DNA from: Alphaproteobacteria bacterium | GTDB lineage: Bacteria > Pseudomonadota > Alphaproteobacteria > SHVV01 | Assembly: GCA_965261735.1 (NCBI GenBank) | Contig: OZ253470.1 | Coordinates: forward strand, 4,064,001-4,128,000 | Reading direction: 5' to 3' | Length of the DNA stretch: 64,000 nt | In this document: positions 1-7,597 of the stretch, piece after piece | How positions within the stretch are numbered: the stretch's first letter is position 1 | Layout of the letters: every line of letters begins with the position of its first letter | Position numbers and translations under genes: made by a program | Notes under the pieces: model-generated | Told to the model about the DNA's origin: nothing | The model's input: the letters and a program-made list of their open reading frames with translations, nothing else | Databases searched by the model: none

Positions 1-114
1 CTGCTCGCCGACCGCGCCCTATCGCGCCTCCTCAAGAAGGACTGGCCGCAAACCCTGGAGGAGCTCGAGGAAACCCGAGATGCGGTCCGCGCGGTGAATC
101 GGGGCGGCCCTTGA
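1..114 (+). CDS. 3' end of an unidentified CDS, truncated by the window edge
   Basis: Open frame LLADRALSRLLKKDWPQTLEELEETRDAVRAVNRGGP* with GC3-rich codons; TGA at 112-114. Confidence 0.5.
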   Translation: MLADRALSRLLKKDWPQTLEELEETRDAVRAVNRGGP

Positions 115-160
115 GCGACGAAATAGGACGGGCCATGTCGGCCGTGGGCGGGTAGGGCGG

Positions 161-2713
161 ATGCCGCGCAAGTCATCTCGCGCCGAGGGGGGTATCCGCA
201 GAGTAGCGAGCGTGAACGAGCTCGCGCCCTATCGTGCCAAGCGCGACTTCCGCCGCACGCCCGAGCCGGAAGGAGCGGCCGCGACCAGGACCGGCGCGCG
301 ATTCGTCGTGCACAAGCATGCGGCAACACGGCTCCACTATGACCTGCGCCTCGAGATCGGCGGGGTACTCAAGAGCTGGGCGGTGACGAAGGGGCCGAGC
401 CTCGATCCCAAGGTCAAACGGCTCGCGGTTCACGTCGAGGACCATCCCCTCAGCTATACCGAGTTCGAGGGCTGGATCCCCAAGGGCCAGTATGGCGGCG
501 GCGCCATGATCGTGTGGGACCGCGGCACGTGGGTCCCGCTCGGCGACCTCGAGAACGATTACCAGCGGGGCGAGCTCAAGTTCCGGCTCGATGGTGAAAA
601 GCTGCAGGGCGGCTGGGCTCTCGTGCGCCTCAAGGGCACGAGCAACGTCGACAAGGGCTGGCTGCTGATCAAGGAGCGCGACATCTTCGCGGCGCCGAGC
701 GCGCAAGCCGACGTTACCGGAGAGGCGCCACTGAGCGTCCTCTCCGGGCTGTCGACCGAGGCTATCGAGGCCGAGCACGCCGATGATGGCCGCGAGCGCA
801 AGCCGCTCGCGCGCAAGCGCCGCAGGAAGCAGCACCCGGAGCGCCTGGTGGGCGCCAAGCGGGCGGTGCAACCCGAGGTGCCGGCGCCTCTGCTAGCCTC
901 CCTCGCGGACGAGCCGCCCGCGGGCACGGGATGGATTCACGAAATCAAGTTCGACGGCTACCGCACGCTCTGCCGGCTGGCCGACGGCGAGGCGCGGCTC
1001 CTCACGCGCAACGGTCACGACTGGACCGACCGCTACGGGCCGGTGGCCGAGTCGTTCGCGGCGCTCCCCTGCCGGCAGGCCACGATCGATGGGGAACTCT
1101 GCGTCCAGAACGCCAAGGGCGTGACCAGCTTCTCCGACCTGCGCGAGGCGCTGTCCGAGGGCGCCACCGAAAGGCTCGTCTTCTTCGCCTTCGATCTGCT
1201 CTATCTCGACGGCTTCGACCTCACGCGAACGCCGCTTTCGGCCCGGAAGTCGACTCTGCGCGTCCTGATCGAAAGCGTCGTCGGGGATCGCTCGCCGATC
1301 CAGTACAGCGACCACGTGGCCGGCGACGGTGCCGCCTTCCTCGCCGAGGCGGCGCGGCTGTCGCTCGAGGGGATCATATCGAAGCGCGAGGACAGCGCGT
1401 ACGCGGCGGGACGGTCGAGCTCCTGGCTCAAGGCCAAGTGCGTTGCCGCCGAGCGGTTTCTCGTCGTGGGCTACACGCGCTCGGCTGCCGCCGGAGGCCT
1501 AGGCGCGCTGCTCGCGGCCGAGCCGGTCGGAGACGGGCTTGCCTACGTCGGCAAGATCGGCACCGGCTATTCGACCGGCGAGATGGAGCGCCTTCTCGCG
1601 GCGCTAGAGCCGCTACGCCGCGACGATCCCGTGTTCACGCTGGTTGATCCGCCAGGCGAGAAGGCGGTGTGGGTCGAGCCCCAGCTCCTCGTCGAGGTTC
1701 AATATCGCGCTCGCACCAGAGAGGGGCGGCTGCGAGGCGCGGTGTACAAGGGGCTGCGCTCCGACACGAGCGCGCCCGCCGTCGCGCGCAAGGGCTACGT
1801 CAGCGATGCCGACCTCGCGAGCATCTGGGTCACCAATCCGGACCGGCGCATGTTCGGCAAAGGGGGGCCGACGAAGCTCGATCTCGCCCTCTACTACGCC
1901 CAGGTCACCGACTGGATCGTCCCGGAGATGGTGAGCCGCCCGGTGACGCTCGTGCGCTGCCCGACGGGCAAGGCCGATGACGTGTTCTATCAGCGTCACG
2001 CCATGCCCGGGATGCCGCAGGGCGTGCGCGAGATAGCGCTGCGCGAGGAGGGCTCCAAGGAGCGCGCCGATTACATCTACATCGAGGACGGCAAGGGACT
2101 GCTGTCGCTGTCCCAATTCGGGGTCATCGAATTCCATCCCTGGGGCTGTCGTGTTGACAAACCGGAGTGGCCCGACCGCTTGATCTTCGACCTCGATCCC
2201 GACGAGGCCCTGGAATGGCGAGAAGTCGCGGACGCGGCGCATCATATCCGCGACGAGGTCGCGGCGCTCGGCCTGGTGGCCTTCGTCCGCACCACGGGCG
2301 GCAAGGGCCTGCACGTGGTCGTGCCGGTCGAGCGCCGGACCGCATGGCCGGCGTTCAAGGGCTTCGCTCAGGCCTTCGTGCTCAAGCTCGCCGCGCAGTC
2401 GCCGAACCGCTACACGGCGTCGATGAGTAAGAAGTCGCGCCAGCGGCGGATCTTTATCGACTACCTGCGCAACGGCCGCGGGGCCACGGCGGCGGCCTCC
2501 TACTCGCTTCGTGCCCGCACCGGCTTTCCCGTCGCGACGCCGGTCGACTGGGCCGAACTCTCGGATATCGACGACCCGGCGGAGTTCAACTACGCGAGCG
2601 TGCCGGACCGGCTCGCGTCGCTCGCCGTCGACCCCTGGCGGGCGCTCGAGGGCTCGGCCCGGCGCCTGACCCGAGCAATGGAGGAAAAATTGGGGATTCA
2701 CAAACCACTGTGA
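161..2713 (+). CDS. ligD: DNA ligase D (phosphoesterase-ligase-polymerase); true start may be GTG at 212
   Basis: PE motif HAATRLHYDLRLE..SWAV; ligase motifs EIKFDGYR and EGIISKR; primase-polymerase motifs DRLIFDLDP, TTGGKGLHV and IFIDYLRN. Confidence 0.97.
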   Translation: MPRKSSRAEGGIRRVASVNELAPYRAKRDFRRTPEPEGAAATRTGARFVVHKHAATRLHYDLRLEIGGVLKSWAVTKGPSLDPKVKRLAVHVEDHPLSYTEFEGWIPKGQYGGGAMIVWDRGTWVPLGDLENDYQRGELKFRLDGEKLQGGWALVRLKGTSNVDKGWLLIKERDIFAAPSAQADVTGEAPLSVLSGLSTEAIEAEHADDGRERKPLARKRRRKQHPERLVGAKRAVQPEVPAPLLASLADEPPAGTGWIHEIKFDGYRTLCRLADGEARLLTRNGHDWTDRYGPVAESFAALPCRQATIDGELCVQNAKGVTSFSDLREALSEGATERLVFFAFDLLYLDGFDLTRTPLSARKSTLRVLIESVVGDRSPIQYSDHVAGDGAAFLAEAARLSLEGIISKREDSAYAAGRSSSWLKAKCVAAERFLVVGYTRSAAAGGLGALLAAEPVGDGLAYVGKIGTGYSTGEMERLLAALEPLRRDDPVFTLVDPPGEKAVWVEPQLLVEVQYRARTREGRLRGAVYKGLRSDTSAPAVARKGYVSDADLASIWVTNPDRRMFGKGGPTKLDLALYYAQVTDWIVPEMVSRPVTLVRCPTGKADDVFYQRHAMPGMPQGVREIALREEGSKERADYIYIEDGKGLLSLSQFGVIEFHPWGCRVDKPEWPDRLIFDLDPDEALEWREVADAAHHIRDEVAALGLVAFVRTTGGKGLHVVVPVERRTAWPAFKGFAQAFVLKLAAQSPNRYTASMSKKSRQRRIFIDYLRNGRGATAAASYSLRARTGFPVATPVDWAELSDIDDPAEFNYASVPDRLASLAVDPWRALEGSARRLTRAMEEKLGIHKPL

Positions 2714-2734
2714 ACCGATGTAAGACTGTTTGTT
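2711..2734 (+). promoter_or_regulatory. Possible sigma-EcfG (general stress) promoter upstream of ku
   Basis: TGAAC-N16-GTT in the AT-rich ligD-ku spacer, resembling the GGAAC-N16/17-CGTT consensus; imperfect match. Confidence 0.35.
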
Positions 2735-2761
2735 GAACATTGACTGTCGGAGGATCGGCGT

Positions 2762-3613
2762 ATGGCTCCGCGTGCCAGCTGGAAGGGTTACCTGAAAATC
2801 TCGCTCGTATCCTGTCCGGTGCGCCTCTACACCGCGACCAGCTCGGGCAACCGCATTGCGTTCCACATGCTGCACAAGGACACGCACAACCGCGTGCAGA
2901 TGAAGCCGCACGATCCCGAGCTCGGCGTGGTCGAGCGCTCCGACCTCGTGAAGGGCTACGAGTTCGAAAAGGACCGCTACGTCGTGGTCAGCGACGAGGA
3001 CCTCGACGCGATCCAGATCGAATCGAGCAAGACGATCTCGATCGAGCGCTTCGTCGATGCCGCCGAGATCGATTCCATGTATCTCGATTCGGCTTACTAC
3101 GTAGCCCCCGCCGGGCCGGTTGCTGAGGAGACCTACCGGGTCGTCCAGGAGGCGATGCGCCAAAAGAACAAGGCGGCCGTGGCCCGTGTCGTACTGTTCG
3201 GCCGCGAGCGCCTCGTTGCGCTGACAGTGCGCGACAAGGGCCTCGTCCTGACCACCCTGCGTAGCGCGGCGGAGGTCCGCGGACACGAGGAGGTCTTCAG
3301 CGAGGTCGGTAGCGGCAAGATCGACAAGGATGCGCTCGAGCTGGCGGCGCACCTGATCTCGCAGAACGAGGGCCAGTTCGAGGCGTCGGAGTTCGAGGAC
3401 CGCTACCAGACGGCGCTGCTCGATGTCGTGAAGGCGAAGCTCAAGGGCGCGACGCCGGTGATCGCCAAGGCACCGGAGCGGGGCCAGGTCATCAACCTGA
3501 TGGATGCCCTGAAGCGGAGCCTGTCGGACGCCAAGAAGCCCCCGGCCGAGAGCAAGAGCCGGGCGCCCGCGAAGAAGGCCGCCGGCAAGGGCCGCAAGCG
3601 GGCTACGGGCTGA
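2762..3613 (+). CDS. ku: Ku protein (NHEJ DNA end-binding)
   Basis: MAPRASWKGYLKISLVSCPVRLY N-terminus; LVKGYE; VINLMDALKRSL; basic C-terminal tail; GGAGG RBS. Confidence 0.97.
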   Translation: MAPRASWKGYLKISLVSCPVRLYTATSSGNRIAFHMLHKDTHNRVQMKPHDPELGVVERSDLVKGYEFEKDRYVVVSDEDLDAIQIESSKTISIERFVDAAEIDSMYLDSAYYVAPAGPVAEETYRVVQEAMRQKNKAAVARVVLFGRERLVALTVRDKGLVLTTLRSAAEVRGHEEVFSEVGSGKIDKDALELAAHLISQNEGQFEASEFEDRYQTALLDVVKAKLKGATPVIAKAPERGQVINLMDALKRSLSDAKKPPAESKSRAPAKKAAGKGRKRATG

Positions 3614-3632
3614 GCCGACGCGGGATCGCGCC

Positions 3633-4736
3633 ATGGGTAGAGGCACACTCGCCGGCAAGGTCGTCGTTTTCATAGGGCGCCTCGATGCGATGTCGCAGCG
3701 TGGCGCCGCCGCCCATGTGACGAGCGCCGGCGGCGTCGTGCGGCGCGGGTTGTCGCGCGCCACGACCCATGTGGTCGTCGGCCACGCGGCCCACACACTG
3801 ATCGAGGACGGCGTCCTATCGAGGCGACTCGAGCGAGCGCGACGGCACAGCGCGCTGTGCCTGAGCGAAACCGCCTTTTTGCGAATGATCGGGGCGGCGA
3901 GCGACGAGTCGGCGGGCCCACGGTCGTTCACCCTCCAAACCCTGGCCGCGCAAGCCGGCATCTCGTCGGAAACCGCTGAGCTTCTGGCGCTGTTCGACAT
4001 CATCGATCCGCGCGACGACAAGGTCTCCTTCGCCGACCTCGTCGCCGCCAAGGAGGTGGCGCGGCTGCTCGGCGACGAGATGTCGCTGGCCGAGATCGTG
4101 GCTAGCGCCGCGCGCATACGTGGGCACGGCGCGTTCGCTGCGCCGCTCGCGCGGGCCAGGCTGGAGCGAACCGGCGAGGGCGTCATGGGCATACGGGTCG
4201 GTGGGGTCGTCGCCGACCTCGACGGTCAAATGCCGCTGCTGCTGGGAAATCCGGGGAACCCCACCGTCCAGGAGCTTTACGAGGCCGCCGAGGCCGCGGA
4301 GGAGGCGGGTGATGAGGATGCCGCAGAGCAGGCCTATCGTCGCTGCCTCGACCTCGACCCGCGCGAGCCGACCGCGGCCTTCAACCTAGGCAACATCTAT
4401 CGCAACGGAGGCCGCATCACACAGGCCCGGCTATGCCTGCACTTTGCGGTCGTGATCGATCCCGGCTTCGCCGAGGCCTGGTACAACCTCGCGAGCCTGG
4501 AAGACGAGGCGGGGAACATTGCTGAGGCCAGGGCGCACCTCGAGAAGGCGGTCGCCGCGGACGCGACGTACGCGGACGCGCTCTACAACCTCGCAAATTT
4601 GTGCTTTCGCGAGGGCGCCTACGCTGAGGCGGTTAACTATTGGCAGCGCTACCTGAGCGTCGATTCCGAGAGCGCCTGGAGCCAAAAGGCGCGCGACGGC
4701 CTCGCCCTGTGCCGGCGCCAATTGCAGGGCGCCTGA
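3633..4736 (+). CDS. BRCT + MerR-like HTH + TPR protein
   Basis: N-terminal LAGKVVVFIGRL..AGG..THVVVG..LSETAF resembles the LigA-type BRCT domain; central HTH-like segment; C-terminal TPRs (AAFNLGNIY, EAWYNLA, DALYNLA). Confidence 0.85.
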   Translation: MGRGTLAGKVVVFIGRLDAMSQRGAAAHVTSAGGVVRRGLSRATTHVVVGHAAHTLIEDGVLSRRLERARRHSALCLSETAFLRMIGAASDESAGPRSFTLQTLAAQAGISSETAELLALFDIIDPRDDKVSFADLVAAKEVARLLGDEMSLAEIVASAARIRGHGAFAAPLARARLERTGEGVMGIRVGGVVADLDGQMPLLLGNPGNPTVQELYEAAEAAEEAGDEDAAEQAYRRCLDLDPREPTAAFNLGNIYRNGGRITQARLCLHFAVVIDPGFAEAWYNLASLEDEAGNIAEARAHLEKAVAADATYADALYNLANLCFREGAYAEAVNYWQRYLSVDSESAWSQKARDGLALCRRQLQGA

Positions 4737-4760
4737 GCATCATGCGATCGGGAGGGTTCG

Positions 4761-5480
4761 GTGGCGGTTGAGCTCCGCGCCGGTGCGAGCGGCTACGCCT
4801 ACAAGGCCTGGAAGGGCAGCTTCTACCCCGAGAAGATTCCCGATGCGGACCTTCTCGCGTTCTACGCCGAGCGACTGCCGGCGGTCGAGATCAACAACAC
4901 CTTCTACCGGCTACCCAAGGCGTCAGTGCTCGCCGGCTGGGCCGAGCAGACCCCGGCGAGCTTCCGGTTCGCGATCAAGGCCTCGCAGCGCATCACGCAT
5001 AGGAGCCGGCTTAAGGACTGCGCCGACACCGTCGCCTACCTGTTCGAGTGTATCGCGGAACTCGGCGACAAGGCGGGCCCGGTGCTATTCCAACTGCCGC
5101 CCAACCTCAAGAAGGACCTGGCGCGGCTTAATGATTTTCTCGCTATCCTGCCCGCGGATCGGCGCGCGACCTTCGAGTTCCGCCACCCGAGCTGGTTCGA
5201 GGACGACGTGTTCGAGGCGCTTCGCGCCCATGGCGTGGCGCTGTGCCTCGCCGAGGCCGCCGACGAGGACAAGAACGCGCCTGTCTTGGCCACCGCCGAC
5301 TGGGGCTACCTGCGCATGCGTCGCGACGACTACGAGGACAAGGACCTGCGCGCCTGGGCCGAGCGCGTGGCCGCGCAGCCATGGACCGACGCGTACGTCT
5401 TCTTCAAGCACGAGGACGAGGGGGCGGCGCCTCGCCTGGCGGCAACGTTCACGCAATTCATGAGTGATCTCCAGGGCTGA
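4761..5480 (+). CDS. DUF72 (YecE-family) TIM-barrel protein
   Basis: GASGYAYKAWKGSFYP, VEINNTFYRLP, FQLPP, FEFRHPSW, YVFFKHE; GTG start with GGAGG RBS. Confidence 0.93.
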   Translation: MAVELRAGASGYAYKAWKGSFYPEKIPDADLLAFYAERLPAVEINNTFYRLPKASVLAGWAEQTPASFRFAIKASQRITHRSRLKDCADTVAYLFECIAELGDKAGPVLFQLPPNLKKDLARLNDFLAILPADRRATFEFRHPSWFEDDVFEALRAHGVALCLAEAADEDKNAPVLATADWGYLRMRRDDYEDKDLRAWAERVAAQPWTDAYVFFKHEDEGAAPRLAATFTQFMSDLQG

Positions 5481-5590
5481 CCCGGCGCCTCGCCTACCTG
5501 AGCTTCCCAACAACGCCTGCGCCACACTGGACCCGCGGCGCCGGCCGCCGTAGAAAGAGACAGCACTGCTTGCCCGCCCGGGAGGGATCC

Positions 5591-6418
5591 ATGCGCGTTT
5601 CTTTTATCGACGTCGGCGGCGTCCGCACCCGCTACTACCATGAGGGCGCCGGCCCGCCGCTCATCCTGGTCCATGGTGCTGGCGCCTCGGCTGACACGTG
5701 GGTGCGCAATATCGACGCGCTCGGCGAGAAATTCGCGATCTACGCACCCGACCTGATCGGCCACGGCTTCACCGACTCCGTCGCGTTGGCCGGCAGGGCG
5801 CCGCAGGCGGAACAGGTCAAGCATTTGTGCCGCTTCGTCGATGCGCTCGGGCTCGATCGCTATCGCCTCGCCGGCAGTTCGTTCGGCGCCCTGATCGTCG
5901 GGCTCTGGTTCTTCGCGCGCCCCGAGCAAATCGCCAAACTGGTGCTCATCGGCTCGGCGTCGACCTTCCATCACACGGAGGAAATGAAGAAGTCCCTCGG
6001 CGGATCGTTCGCCAATCAGATCGCGGCGCTCACCAACCCGACCCGCGAGCTGGTGCGCAAGCGCAACGTCGGATCGAACTTCGACAAATCCGAGACCTTC
6101 GAGGAGATCATCCTCAATCAGCTGACCTACTTCGCGCTGCCGGACCGCAAGGCGGCCTACGAGGAGATGCACGCGGGTCTGGCCGCGAGCGCCGACTCCG
6201 CCGAATATCGCATCATCAATCGGCTCGAGGAGATCAAGCTGCCGACACTGATCATCACCGGCCGCGACGATCCGCGAGCAAAGTGGGAGCGCGCGGTGGA
6301 GGGCCAGAAGCGCATGCCCGACGCCGAGATACACATCTTCGATAAGTGCGGCCACAAGCCCTTCGTCGAGCACGCGGCCCGGTTCAACGAGCTCGTGACG
6401 GAGTTTCTCAGCCGGTGA
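5591..6418 (+). CDS. Alpha/beta hydrolase (meta-cleavage-product hydrolase-like)
   Basis: LILVHG, APDLIGHG, nucleophile elbow GSSFG, C-terminal CGH. Confidence 0.88.
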   Translation: MRVSFIDVGGVRTRYYHEGAGPPLILVHGAGASADTWVRNIDALGEKFAIYAPDLIGHGFTDSVALAGRAPQAEQVKHLCRFVDALGLDRYRLAGSSFGALIVGLWFFARPEQIAKLVLIGSASTFHHTEEMKKSLGGSFANQIAALTNPTRELVRKRNVGSNFDKSETFEEIILNQLTYFALPDRKAAYEEMHAGLAASADSAEYRIINRLEEIKLPTLIITGRDDPRAKWERAVEGQKRMPDAEIHIFDKCGHKPFVEHAARFNELVTEFLSR

Positions 6419-6451
6419 AGAGGCACCAGGGCATGGGCGCGAGCTAGCCCG

Positions 6452-7597
6452 ATGGAGAAGCGGATCCTCGTTGCCGATGATCCAGTGCCGGGCTTCCCGG
6501 GCTTGGTCCAAGCAGGGCCGTTCCTGTTCACGGCCGGTTGCGATGGCCACCGCGACCTGGAAACGGGCGCGATCGTACCGGCGCTCGCCGACGCCGCGGA
6601 GGCGCAGTGCGAGAACTCCTATGGCAAGGTGTGTGCGCTCCTCGCCCGCGGCGGTGCCGGGGCCGATGCCGTGGTACGTCTCGACCATTACGTGAGCAGC
6701 CAGGAGTGGCTGCTGCGCCGCGGCCCCATTCGCGCCCGCATCTTCGGAGCCCCGGCGCCGCTGGCGAGCACCGGCGTGGCCGCCAAGATGGCCGGCATCA
6801 ACATGCTGACCACGGCGGCGATTGCGGTCACGAACAGCGACGACAAGCGCGTCCTGGTGCCGGGCGAGCCCTACGGCATGGGCCGCATCTCTTCCGTCGT
6901 CGCAGCCGGCCCCTTTCTGTTTCTCTCCGGCATTCGCGCAACGCTGCACCCGCGGCCCGAGGTGCCTGTGCCGGAGGAGACGCCCGAGGCCTTCGGCGCT
7001 CAAACCCGGCTCAGCTACCGCATTATCGCCGAGATCCTGGCGGAAGTGGGCGCCGAACCGGCGCACATCATCCGGCTCGAGCGCTACATTCGTGACCGAG
7101 CGTGCATCGGGGAGGAGGAGGAAGCGTGCCGCGACGTCCTTGGCGCGGTGTCGTGCGCGAGCACCACGATCGCCCTGCCGCTCGGCATGCGCGGGGAGGT
7201 CGAGATCACGACGCTCGCCGCGGCACCCGGCACGGACAAGGAGATCCTCGGCGATGAAGGCGACCCTACGGTCATTCGCTGTGGCGGCTTCGTTTTCGTC
7301 GGCGCGTGCTTCGGCATGGCGGCGCACACAGGCGGCCCTCCGTGGACCGAGCTAGCTAGCAACACGGAAGCGCAGGTCGAGAATGCGCTCGCAGTTCTAA
7401 AGGCGCGCCTCGAGGGTGCAGGTAGCGGCCTCGATCGGGTCGTCCGGCTCGACGCCTACCTGCGTGACCCCAACGTTGCCGAGCGGTTCTATACCCTGCT
7501 GCGGCACGCCTTTGGCGCGCATGCCCCCGTCGTCGTCCTCGCCGGCGCCGAGCTCGAAGGTATCGGCGAAGTGATGCTGAACGCCATTGCCTGCTAG
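6452..7597 (+). CDS. Three-domain Rid (YjgF/YER057c/UK114) family protein
   Basis: Three units of about 125 aa, each with a GPFLF/GGFVF strand and a V(V/I)RL segment. Confidence 0.75.
   Translation: MEKRILVADDPVPGFPGLVQAGPFLFTAGCDGHRDLETGAIVPALADAAEAQCENSYGKVCALLARGGAGADAVVRLDHYVSSQEWLLRRGPIRARIFGAPAPLASTGVAAKMAGINMLTTAAIAVTNSDDKRVLVPGEPYGMGRISSVVAAGPFLFLSGIRATLHPRPEVPVPEETPEAFGAQTRLSYRIIAEILAEVGAEPAHIIRLERYIRDRACIGEEEEACRDVLGAVSCASTTIALPLGMRGEVEITTLAAAPGTDKEILGDEGDPTVIRCGGFVFVGACFGMAAHTGGPPWTELASNTEAQVENALAVLKARLEGAGSGLDRVVRLDAYLRDPNVAERFYTLLRHAFGAHAPVVVLAGAELEGIGEVMLNAIAC

Follow-up and report, generated by a model that had tools for sequence, protein, structure and literature searches.

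Non-homologous end joining (NHEJ) in bacteria is taught as a two-protein system that consists of Ku and LigD. The two-component systems of Mycobacterium, Bacillus subtilis, Pseudomonas aeruginosa, and Sinorhizobium meliloti (Ku2/LigD2) share a ligD-ku operon, a three-domain LigD, and a homodimer-type Ku with a locus of an Alphaproteobacteria bacterium (GTDB lineage SHVV01), which was analyzed here within a 64,000-nt stretch of its genome (assembly GCA_965261735.1, contig OZ253470.1, positions 4,064,001 to 4,128,000; this whole stretch is hereafter called the window). In contrast to the two-component description of these systems, the window harbored a conserved third gene after ku, here designated BTPR, and its Ku contained a conserved motif in the extended C-terminus. 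BTPR is a real conserved partner of Ku that was undescribed in the literature searched. Sequence and genomic context suggest that the conserved unit consists of ku and BTPR, often with ligD beside them, and that BTPR is most likely (a probability of roughly 60%) an accessory factor of Ku-dependent end joining. If this is true, a conserved third NHEJ gene would revise the two-protein picture.

The locus at 161-5480 of the window comprised four co-oriented genes on the plus strand (open reading frames (ORFs) at 161-2713, 2762-3613, 3633-4736, and 4761-5480), which were separated by gaps of 48, 19, and 24 nt. A preliminary description of this DNA had reported the same four genes and gaps, with which the ORF coordinates agreed exactly, and had read them as an uncharacterized NHEJ accessory module of ligD, ku, a third gene encoding BRCT, helix-turn-helix (HTH), and tetratricopeptide repeat (TPR) domains, and a DUF72 gene. 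The LigD of the window carried its three domains in one protein (LigD_N, 149 bits; DNA_ligase_A_M, 87 bits; LigD_Prim-Pol, 300 bits), together with a match to DNA_ligase_A_C, and scored 957 bits with NF004628 (cut-off 895) and 642 bits with TIGR02776. Its Ku was a bacterial Ku that matched positions 1-259 of TIGR02772 well above the cut-off of 150 bits, contained the conserved helix ..NLMDALKRSL, and was the sole Ku of the 5.03-Mb single-contig genome. The features of these three genes are as follows.

161..2713, plus strand: ligD, with 3'-phosphoesterase, ATP-dependent ligase, and primase-polymerase domains
2714..2761, plus strand: ligD-ku spacer, AT-rich relative to the surrounding 65-70% GC, a putative internal promoter
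2762..3613, plus strand: ku, 283 aa (TIGR02772, 286.4 bits)
3533..3553, plus strand: Ku tail motif KKPPAES, residues 258-264, just past the conserved C-terminal helix, a candidate docking site for BTPR
3633..4736, plus strand: BTPR (gene 3), 367 aa, with BRCT, MerR-like winged HTH, linker, and four TPRs
3633..3905, plus strand: LigA/RFC1-type BRCT domain, residues about 1-91 (25-member family profile against solved structures)
3924..4112, plus strand: MerR-type winged HTH, residues 98-160 (hhalign profile-profile comparison)
4221..4229, plus strand: D197-G198-Q199, between the HTH and the TPRs, invariant in a 26-sequence family alignment
4269..4673, plus strand: four TPRs, residues about 213-347 (TPR_2, 64.8 bits; TPR_1, 63.5 bits; TPR_17, 58.5 bits)

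Linkage of BTPR with ku and ligD

A scan of one genome per species yielded 308 BTPR loci, the best 80 of which were analyzed; nearly all were labelled Alphaproteobacteria, and BTPR identity across the 80 loci was as low as 31-35%. Upstream sequence of at least 1000 nt was available for 75 of these loci; in 63 of them, ku was co-oriented and located no more than 500 nt upstream of BTPR, and in another 5 it was at 500-2000 nt. Because the best 80 loci are a selected set, the neighborhood test was repeated on 400 Alphaproteobacteria genomes drawn evenly, in which BTPR was defined as a full N-terminal match at E<1e-27; the BTPR and Ku counts of this sample include two unpublished genomes (G240 and G040), as negatives only. 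BTPR occurred at 16 loci in 15 of the 400 genomes and was immediately preceded by ku at 15 of these loci; the other matches (about 345) were LigA BRCT domains. Ku was found in 57 of the 400 genomes, including all 15 BTPR genomes, and BTPR is thus present in about a quarter of the sampled Ku-bearing Alphaproteobacteria (15/57). A phylum-level sample added one further genus, with ku directly upstream of BTPR in 8/8 genomes, although all matches listed belonged to one class and therefore give little information on other classes. Furthermore, five genomes in which ku did not adjoin BTPR each carried one Ku elsewhere (5/5). Co-occurrence of BTPR with Ku at the genome level was complete in the genomes checked (15/15 and 5/5). 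The neighborhood comparison that the preliminary description had named as a check on its third gene was therefore borne out for ku, and BTPR has the conserved neighborhood of a ku operon partner.

The exceptions without an adjacent ku clustered in a Geminicoccaceae-like group (L014-L021, L024, and L029). In this group, an opposite-strand ORF of about 440-460 aa was located just upstream of BTPR (e.g., L018:6324-7703, minus strand); it was unannotated, matched no Pfam family, and gave a weak coiled-coil-like match. This ORF separated BTPR from ku, or ku was located about 120 kb away or on another contig. Locus L091 contained a second, divergent BTPR copy (G167:C11:133845-134420) with 31% identity and a 546-aa open frame.

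ligD is a looser neighbor of BTPR than ku. It was found within 8 kb of BTPR in 45 of the 80 loci and not within this distance in the other 35, and its position varied: it immediately preceded ku in 20 loci, immediately followed BTPR in 6, and was farther away in the rest. The ligD-ku-BTPR order described for the window thus extends to other loci in part, with ligD less tightly tied than ku. Clustering of neighboring ORFs across the 80 loci and the window revealed no other cluster in more than 21 of the 81 loci, apart from the LigD/Ku/BTPR cluster and overlapping ORFs, in an analysis that was blurred by long spurious high-GC ORFs that merged clusters. In a LigD sub-clade that includes the window (2681-2713) and L002, L003, L012, L084-L086, and L088, the C-terminus of LigD is a conserved peptide, [KR]K[LFV]x[IV][NH]K. 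This peptide was considered as a general TPR ligand and was rejected, since it is confined to the one sub-clade.

A BTPR homolog with about 36% identity was found on 87 megaplasmids of Sinorhizobium, Ensifer, and Pararhizobium. On pSymB of S. meliloti 1021, the gene order was ligD, ku, and BTPR, and the stop codon of ku overlapped the start codon of BTPR (TGATG). Of the three Kus that this megaplasmid encodes, two are next to each other (1337161 and 1338054), and the third, at 1489836, is linked with BTPR. In the supplement to Dupuy et al. (PMC6379672), ku3-ku4 (SMb21406-21407) is placed at 1337132, ligD2 is SMb20685, ku2 is SMb20686, and an unnamed gene, SMb20687, is drawn beside ku2. From its position on pSymB beside ku2, the BTPR homolog is SMb20687. 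Ku2/LigD2 is the main NHEJ pathway in S. meliloti according to the available portion of the same study (PMC6379672), and the portions of its text and supplement that were searched contained no discussion of SMb20687. Full-text literature searches, with subscription journals outside their coverage, returned nothing on the BTPR family or on SMb20687, and the accessible parts of PMC9226535 and PMC7719229 did not mention a BRCT-HTH-TPR gene. In S. meliloti RCAM1115 (L146:3563-6018), ligD2 was present as two overlapping frames, phosphoesterase followed by ligase-polymerase, whereas it was one ORF in strain 1021 (L147); the split reflects a frameshift or else an error in sequencing.

The Ku tail motif and the BTPR protein

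An alignment of BTPR-adjacent Kus revealed that K259, A262, S264, and R267 were conserved in an otherwise variable basic tail. A strict motif, [KR]-P-[PRA]-A-x-[ST], was scored in the 30 residues that follow the conserved C-terminal helix, along with a looser pattern. The strict motif was found in 58 of 68 distinct BTPR-adjacent Kus and the loose pattern in 65, whereas the Kus that were not adjacent to BTPR, which came from the 400-genome sample (37 of the 38 from genomes without a BTPR match), showed the strict motif in 0/38 and the loose one in 1/38. Four Ku rows were left out of this count as the helix pattern was not found; in three of them (L018, L019, and L024), BTPR was located 1.7-1.8 kb downstream and the motif was seen by eye. 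The motif was also present in two other Kus that were classed apart, namely that of L113, which is located at the end of a contig, and that of L067, which has BTPR about 1 kb downstream. Because the motif was chosen after the adjacent Kus had been seen, it was tested prospectively on Kus located far from BTPR in BTPR-bearing genomes, and all five contained it (QKPPAKS, RKPPAQS, LKPPAPS, LKPPAAS, and LKPPAMS). On pSymB of S. meliloti, it was present in Ku2 and in the first Ku of the ku3-ku4 pair, and absent from the second Ku of this pair. Four unlinked Kus (L127, L130, L132, and L134) resembled the first ku3-ku4 Ku past the helix, yet lacked the motif; these came from genomes without a BTPR match, three of them belonged to one clade of the Ku tree, and the likeness of L132 was judged by eye.

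BTPR-adjacent Kus do not form one clade. In a quick maximum-likelihood tree of 112 Ku rows, the label "adjacent" required nine changes, eight of which were forced by well-supported branches. BTPR-adjacent Kus therefore span several clades and are interleaved with non-adjacent Kus. The available portion of McGovern et al. (2016, PMC4889933) reports that the minimal C-terminus of Ku binds LigD, and that no significant similarity exists among the extended C-termini. The motif that tracks BTPR is located at the start of the extended C-terminus, and thus falls in a part of Ku that was described as lacking sequence conservation. If BTPR reads this motif, it would provide a concrete handle on how the C-terminal extension of Ku works.

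The BTPR family included more than 200 full-length relatives at 40-53% identity, which source databases label "tetratricopeptide repeat protein," "PilF," or "TolA-binding protein," and NCBIfam had no dedicated family for it. A search of a library of 1.84 billion proteins with the middle part of BTPR returned 768 clusters at E<=1e-3, of which 261 reached E<=1e-10. The best matches were mostly 355-380 aa in length with the middle domain at about 95-215, and the shorter ones are probably fragments. Architecture and length are uniform across the family. Clusters that were automatically named BRCT/MerR HTH/TPR in the ESM Atlas also occurred in Planctomycetota and Acidobacteriota; the linkage with Ku is claimed for Alphaproteobacteria.

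The domains of BTPR differed in how readily they were recognized. A profile of 25 BTPR N-termini matched the BRCT domains of LigA (2owo, E 7.6e-8; 1l7b) and RFC1 (2ebu and 2k6g, E about 2e-6, best 1.7e-6), Pfam BRCT was matched in 13 of the 25 family members, and the family profile also picked up the LigA BRCT of the window genome. The middle domain was aligned over 63 columns with 29 MerR_1 domains from the window genome and relatives at an hhalign probability of 90.3% (E 1.5e-6), whereas the BRCT, linker, and TPR segments of BTPR used as controls gave 0.2-0.6%. Pfam MerR_1 was matched in 4 of the 25 members (best E 2e-4), the BTPR of the window had no Pfam MerR match at E<=1, and the BTPR profile found no MerR chain among solved structures at E<=10. 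The preliminary description had assigned a LigA-type BRCT, a MerR-like HTH, and several TPRs. The first two were weak in the single protein but held at the family level, and the strong Pfam matches at residues 213-347 agree with the third. Between the HTH and the TPRs, G198 and Q199 were invariant also in a 25-locus N-terminal alignment, and the TPRs were followed by a conserved C-terminal helix.

BTPR as a probable end-joining factor or a possible regulator of ku

TPR domains bind short linear peptides, and BRCT domains of the LigA/RFC1 type bind DNA, with that of RFC1 binding 5'-phosphorylated ends. The BRCT, winged HTH, and TPR domains of BTPR, as recognized by homology, would therefore fit a role at DNA ends. 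We infer that BTPR binds Ku, that it binds DNA, and that it affects repair. In this model, the TPRs of BTPR would be the domain that reads the motif, docking on [KR]-P-[PRA]-A-x-[ST] where the basic C-terminal extension of Ku begins, and the BRCT domain and the winged helix would then contact DNA at the end bound by Ku or close to it. BTPR might thereby stabilize or bridge the DNA end, or pass the end to LigD. A prediction of the complex of a Ku dimer with BTPR (single run) gave a score of 0.31, with the mark at 0.32, and so speaks neither for nor against such a complex. The preliminary description had proposed a scaffold that recruits Ku and LigD; such a scaffold is plausible, and the tracking of BTPR by the Ku tail motif supports it. 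With somewhat less than even odds, NHEJ in a subset of bacteria, including the Ku2/LigD2 system of S. meliloti, may have three components, in which BTPR would read the Ku tail, bind the end, and tune bridging, end choice, or fidelity. S. meliloti is suited to experiments on this point, as ku and ligD mutants are already available for it, together with quantitative assays of end joining (PMC6379672).

Several observations weigh against a role of BTPR in end joining. ku was absent within 8 kb of BTPR in 7 of the 75 loci, one of which had ligD directly upstream, and no ku or ligD was found within about 7 kb of the second BTPR copy of L091. Because the genomes are related, the counts overstate independence. 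BTPR was lacking in 42 of the 57 Ku-bearing genomes of the even sample, so it is not essential to Ku function in general. In the BTPR of the window alone, BRCT (PF00533) scored 19.0-19.7 bits, which is under the Pfam gathering threshold of 21.3, and the MerR-type HTH is classically a domain of transcription factors. The strict motif was missing in 10 of the 68 adjacent Kus and the loose one in 3, and the motif was defined post hoc from adjacent Kus, with only the five distant Kus and those of S. meliloti coming later. Finally, the accessible portion of PMC6379672 reports that a ku2 deletion regained nearly wild-type repair when ku2 alone was supplied ectopically; this rescue shows no obvious polar defect, yet is uninformative on SMb20687.

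The HTH is the starting point of the best-surviving alternative, in which BTPR is a dedicated transcriptional regulator of ku (and of ligD where it is adjacent) that would bind an operator via its MerR-type HTH, with BRCT and TPRs as sensor or partner modules. This is unlikely, although the profile match of the HTH to MerR_1 and the MerR_1 hits within the family favor it, and regulators often adjoin their target genes. Classical MerR proteins have an N-terminal HTH, followed by a dimerization coiled coil and an effector-binding C-terminus. In BTPR, the HTH was internal (98-160), between BRCT and the TPRs, and the gene was not divergent from ku, but was co-oriented and located downstream of it, the two genes being separated by 19 nt or overlapping at stop and start. 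A regulatory role also leaves unexplained why a motif in the tail of the Ku protein tracks BTPR.

In favor of a regulator, the AT-rich ligD-ku spacer could hold a promoter, and ku2 of S. meliloti has its own stress-induced promoter according to the portion of PMC6379672 that was available. The spacer of the window contained an imperfect EcfG-type box (TGAAC-N15-TGTT), and one relative (L002/L081) contained a perfect one (GGAAC-N15-CGTT) between ligD and ku, about 40-65 nt upstream of ku. Such a box before ku would fit the stress control reported for S. meliloti ku. No exact EcfG-type box (GGAAC-N15-18-CGTT) was found near the operon of the window or in the 7.2 kb upstream, and no sigma-70-like promoter was found in window 1-6500. 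When the 110 nt preceding ku were compared by eye in the window and 49 loci (50 sequences), they showed no conserved non-coding operator. The sole conserved box, GGGATT[AC]ACAA, which was unique in the genome, was rejected as an operator, as it is coding sequence for the C-terminal LigD peptide described above. BTPR could also be both a regulator and an end-joining factor.

No terminator-like site was found between the genes of the window. In two metatranscriptome runs of one study, a few contigs with at least 99% identity covered ku in part, the gap between ku and BTPR as far as the start of BTPR, and a portion of BTPR; these were of low depth, DNA carry-over is possible, and one transcript is not implied.

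Neighboring genes and comparison with known systems

Two further genes flanked the ligD-ku-BTPR genes of the window.

1..114, plus strand: 3' end of a gene for an Fpg/Nei-family DNA glycosylase (Fapy_DNA_glyco, 57 bits; H2TH, 55 bits; zf-FPG, 27 bits)
4761..5480, plus strand: DUF72 TIM-barrel protein, 239 aa, with a GTG start after GGGAGGG (PF01904, 217.5 bits)

The Fpg/Nei glycosylase was 308 aa in length; its gene started 812 nt before the window (L178:6188-7114) and ended at 114, 46 nt before ligD, so that the co-oriented run of DNA-repair genes comprised five genes. The fourth gene, which the preliminary description had identified correctly as DUF72, was full-length (profile positions 1-216 of 217), and its nearest solved relative was TM1631 (PDB 1vpq, E 6.7e-14). 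None of the five proteins (Fpg/Nei, LigD, Ku, BTPR, and DUF72) matched a PADLOC defense family. An alpha/beta hydrolase gene (Abhydrolase_1) was located on the same strand at 5570-6418, 89 nt after DUF72.

Even less probable than a regulator is a single module of ligD, ku, BTPR, DUF72, and Fpg/Nei for "dirty" breaks, with DUF72 as the end-processing nuclease. Gaps of 46, 48, 19, and 24 nt without a predicted terminator between the genes agree with such a module. According to the available parts of two papers, a computational prediction makes TM1631 a DNA-repair enzyme resembling endonuclease IV (PMC3828134), and DUF72 is reported to show a relationship to UV-damage endonuclease and enrichment in the vicinity of polB2 damage-response genes (PMC11791011). 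In L072, moreover, DUF72 preceded ku by 327 nt, and in three Reyranella loci it followed ligD at a distance of 0.9-2.1 kb. Across genomes, however, the linkage failed. DUF72 was found within 8 kb of BTPR in 6 of the 80 loci and was adjacent to it in none. Although 43 of the 57 Ku-bearing genomes had DUF72 (68 matches), it was within 10 kb of Ku in one (G171), and in G323, which belongs to the same family as the window organism, DUF72 was on a contig other than that of ligD-ku-BTPR. A homolog of Fpg/Nei was present in 0/96 related loci at E<1e-8. DUF72 thus lacks the conserved neighborhood of a ku operon partner, and its proposed part as the end-processing enzyme of the module finds no support as a general feature. 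The accessory module of the preliminary description is therefore supported in part, by the linkage of BTPR and not by that of DUF72.

As linkage of both genes is rare across loci, DUF72 and Fpg/Nei are local additions. They are lineage-specific repair neighbors that may share the expression of the module but lie outside it, and DUF72 is possibly co-transcribed with it in the window genome. The adjacency of DUF72, seemingly the most intriguing trait of this locus, turns out to be a local arrangement.

In S. meliloti (pSymB, L146:8082-9503) and in two loci labelled Mesorhizobium and Devosia (L065 and L070), BTPR was followed by a same-strand Abhydrolase_11 gene and then by xth (exonuclease III), which was located 0.65 kb after BTPR. 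The position of xth is a further point in favor of the five-gene module. As a lead only, it is possible that lineages place different enzymes for abasic sites or 3' ends by the module, with DUF72 and Fpg/Nei in the window and xth elsewhere. Relatives of Abhydrolase_11 were found near the 3' side of BTPR in 16 of the 96 loci; in 11 of these, they were on the opposite strand and within about 1 kb downstream.

That the adjacency of ku and BTPR is inherited synteny without functional coupling, with BTPR acting in an unrelated process, would suit the generic database names, the many processes in which TPR proteins act, and the related alphaproteobacterial lineages from which most loci come, but is very improbable, as adjacency was kept down to 31% identity and through ligD rearrangements, adjacent Kus occurred in several Ku clades, Ku was present in all BTPR genomes checked though most of the 400 genomes lack it, and the Ku tail motif tracked BTPR even when the genes were far apart.

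Several known protein families resemble BTPR in part. The BRCT domains of LigA and RFC1 were the best solved matches of its N-terminus; in contrast to these, the domain of BTPR is N-terminal in a non-enzymatic protein, has an insertion of about nine residues relative to LigA, and has a hydrophobic residue in place of the Thr of the T-G motif, followed by an invariant G15 and a near-invariant R16. BTPR shares the winged HTH with MerR regulators, but in BTPR it is followed by a linker and TPRs, and the gene lies downstream in the operon. The DUF72 protein matched TM1631 in sequence, and its link to NHEJ genes is confined to the window genome and a few others.

In eukaryotes, Ku recruits partners through its tails and through short motifs, as in the C-terminal peptide of Ku80 with DNA-PKcs and the Ku-binding motifs of APLF, XLF, and PAXX. 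The logic proposed for BTPR would be analogous, in that, at DNA ends, a scaffold or helical-repeat partner would be connected with Ku by a short linear motif. On the other hand, the two systems share no sequence homology, and here the motif is on the bacterial Ku and the proposed reader is a TPR protein. If this proposal is true, Ku and BTPR would represent a bacterial equivalent of the way in which eukaryotic Ku recruits partners through tails and motifs.

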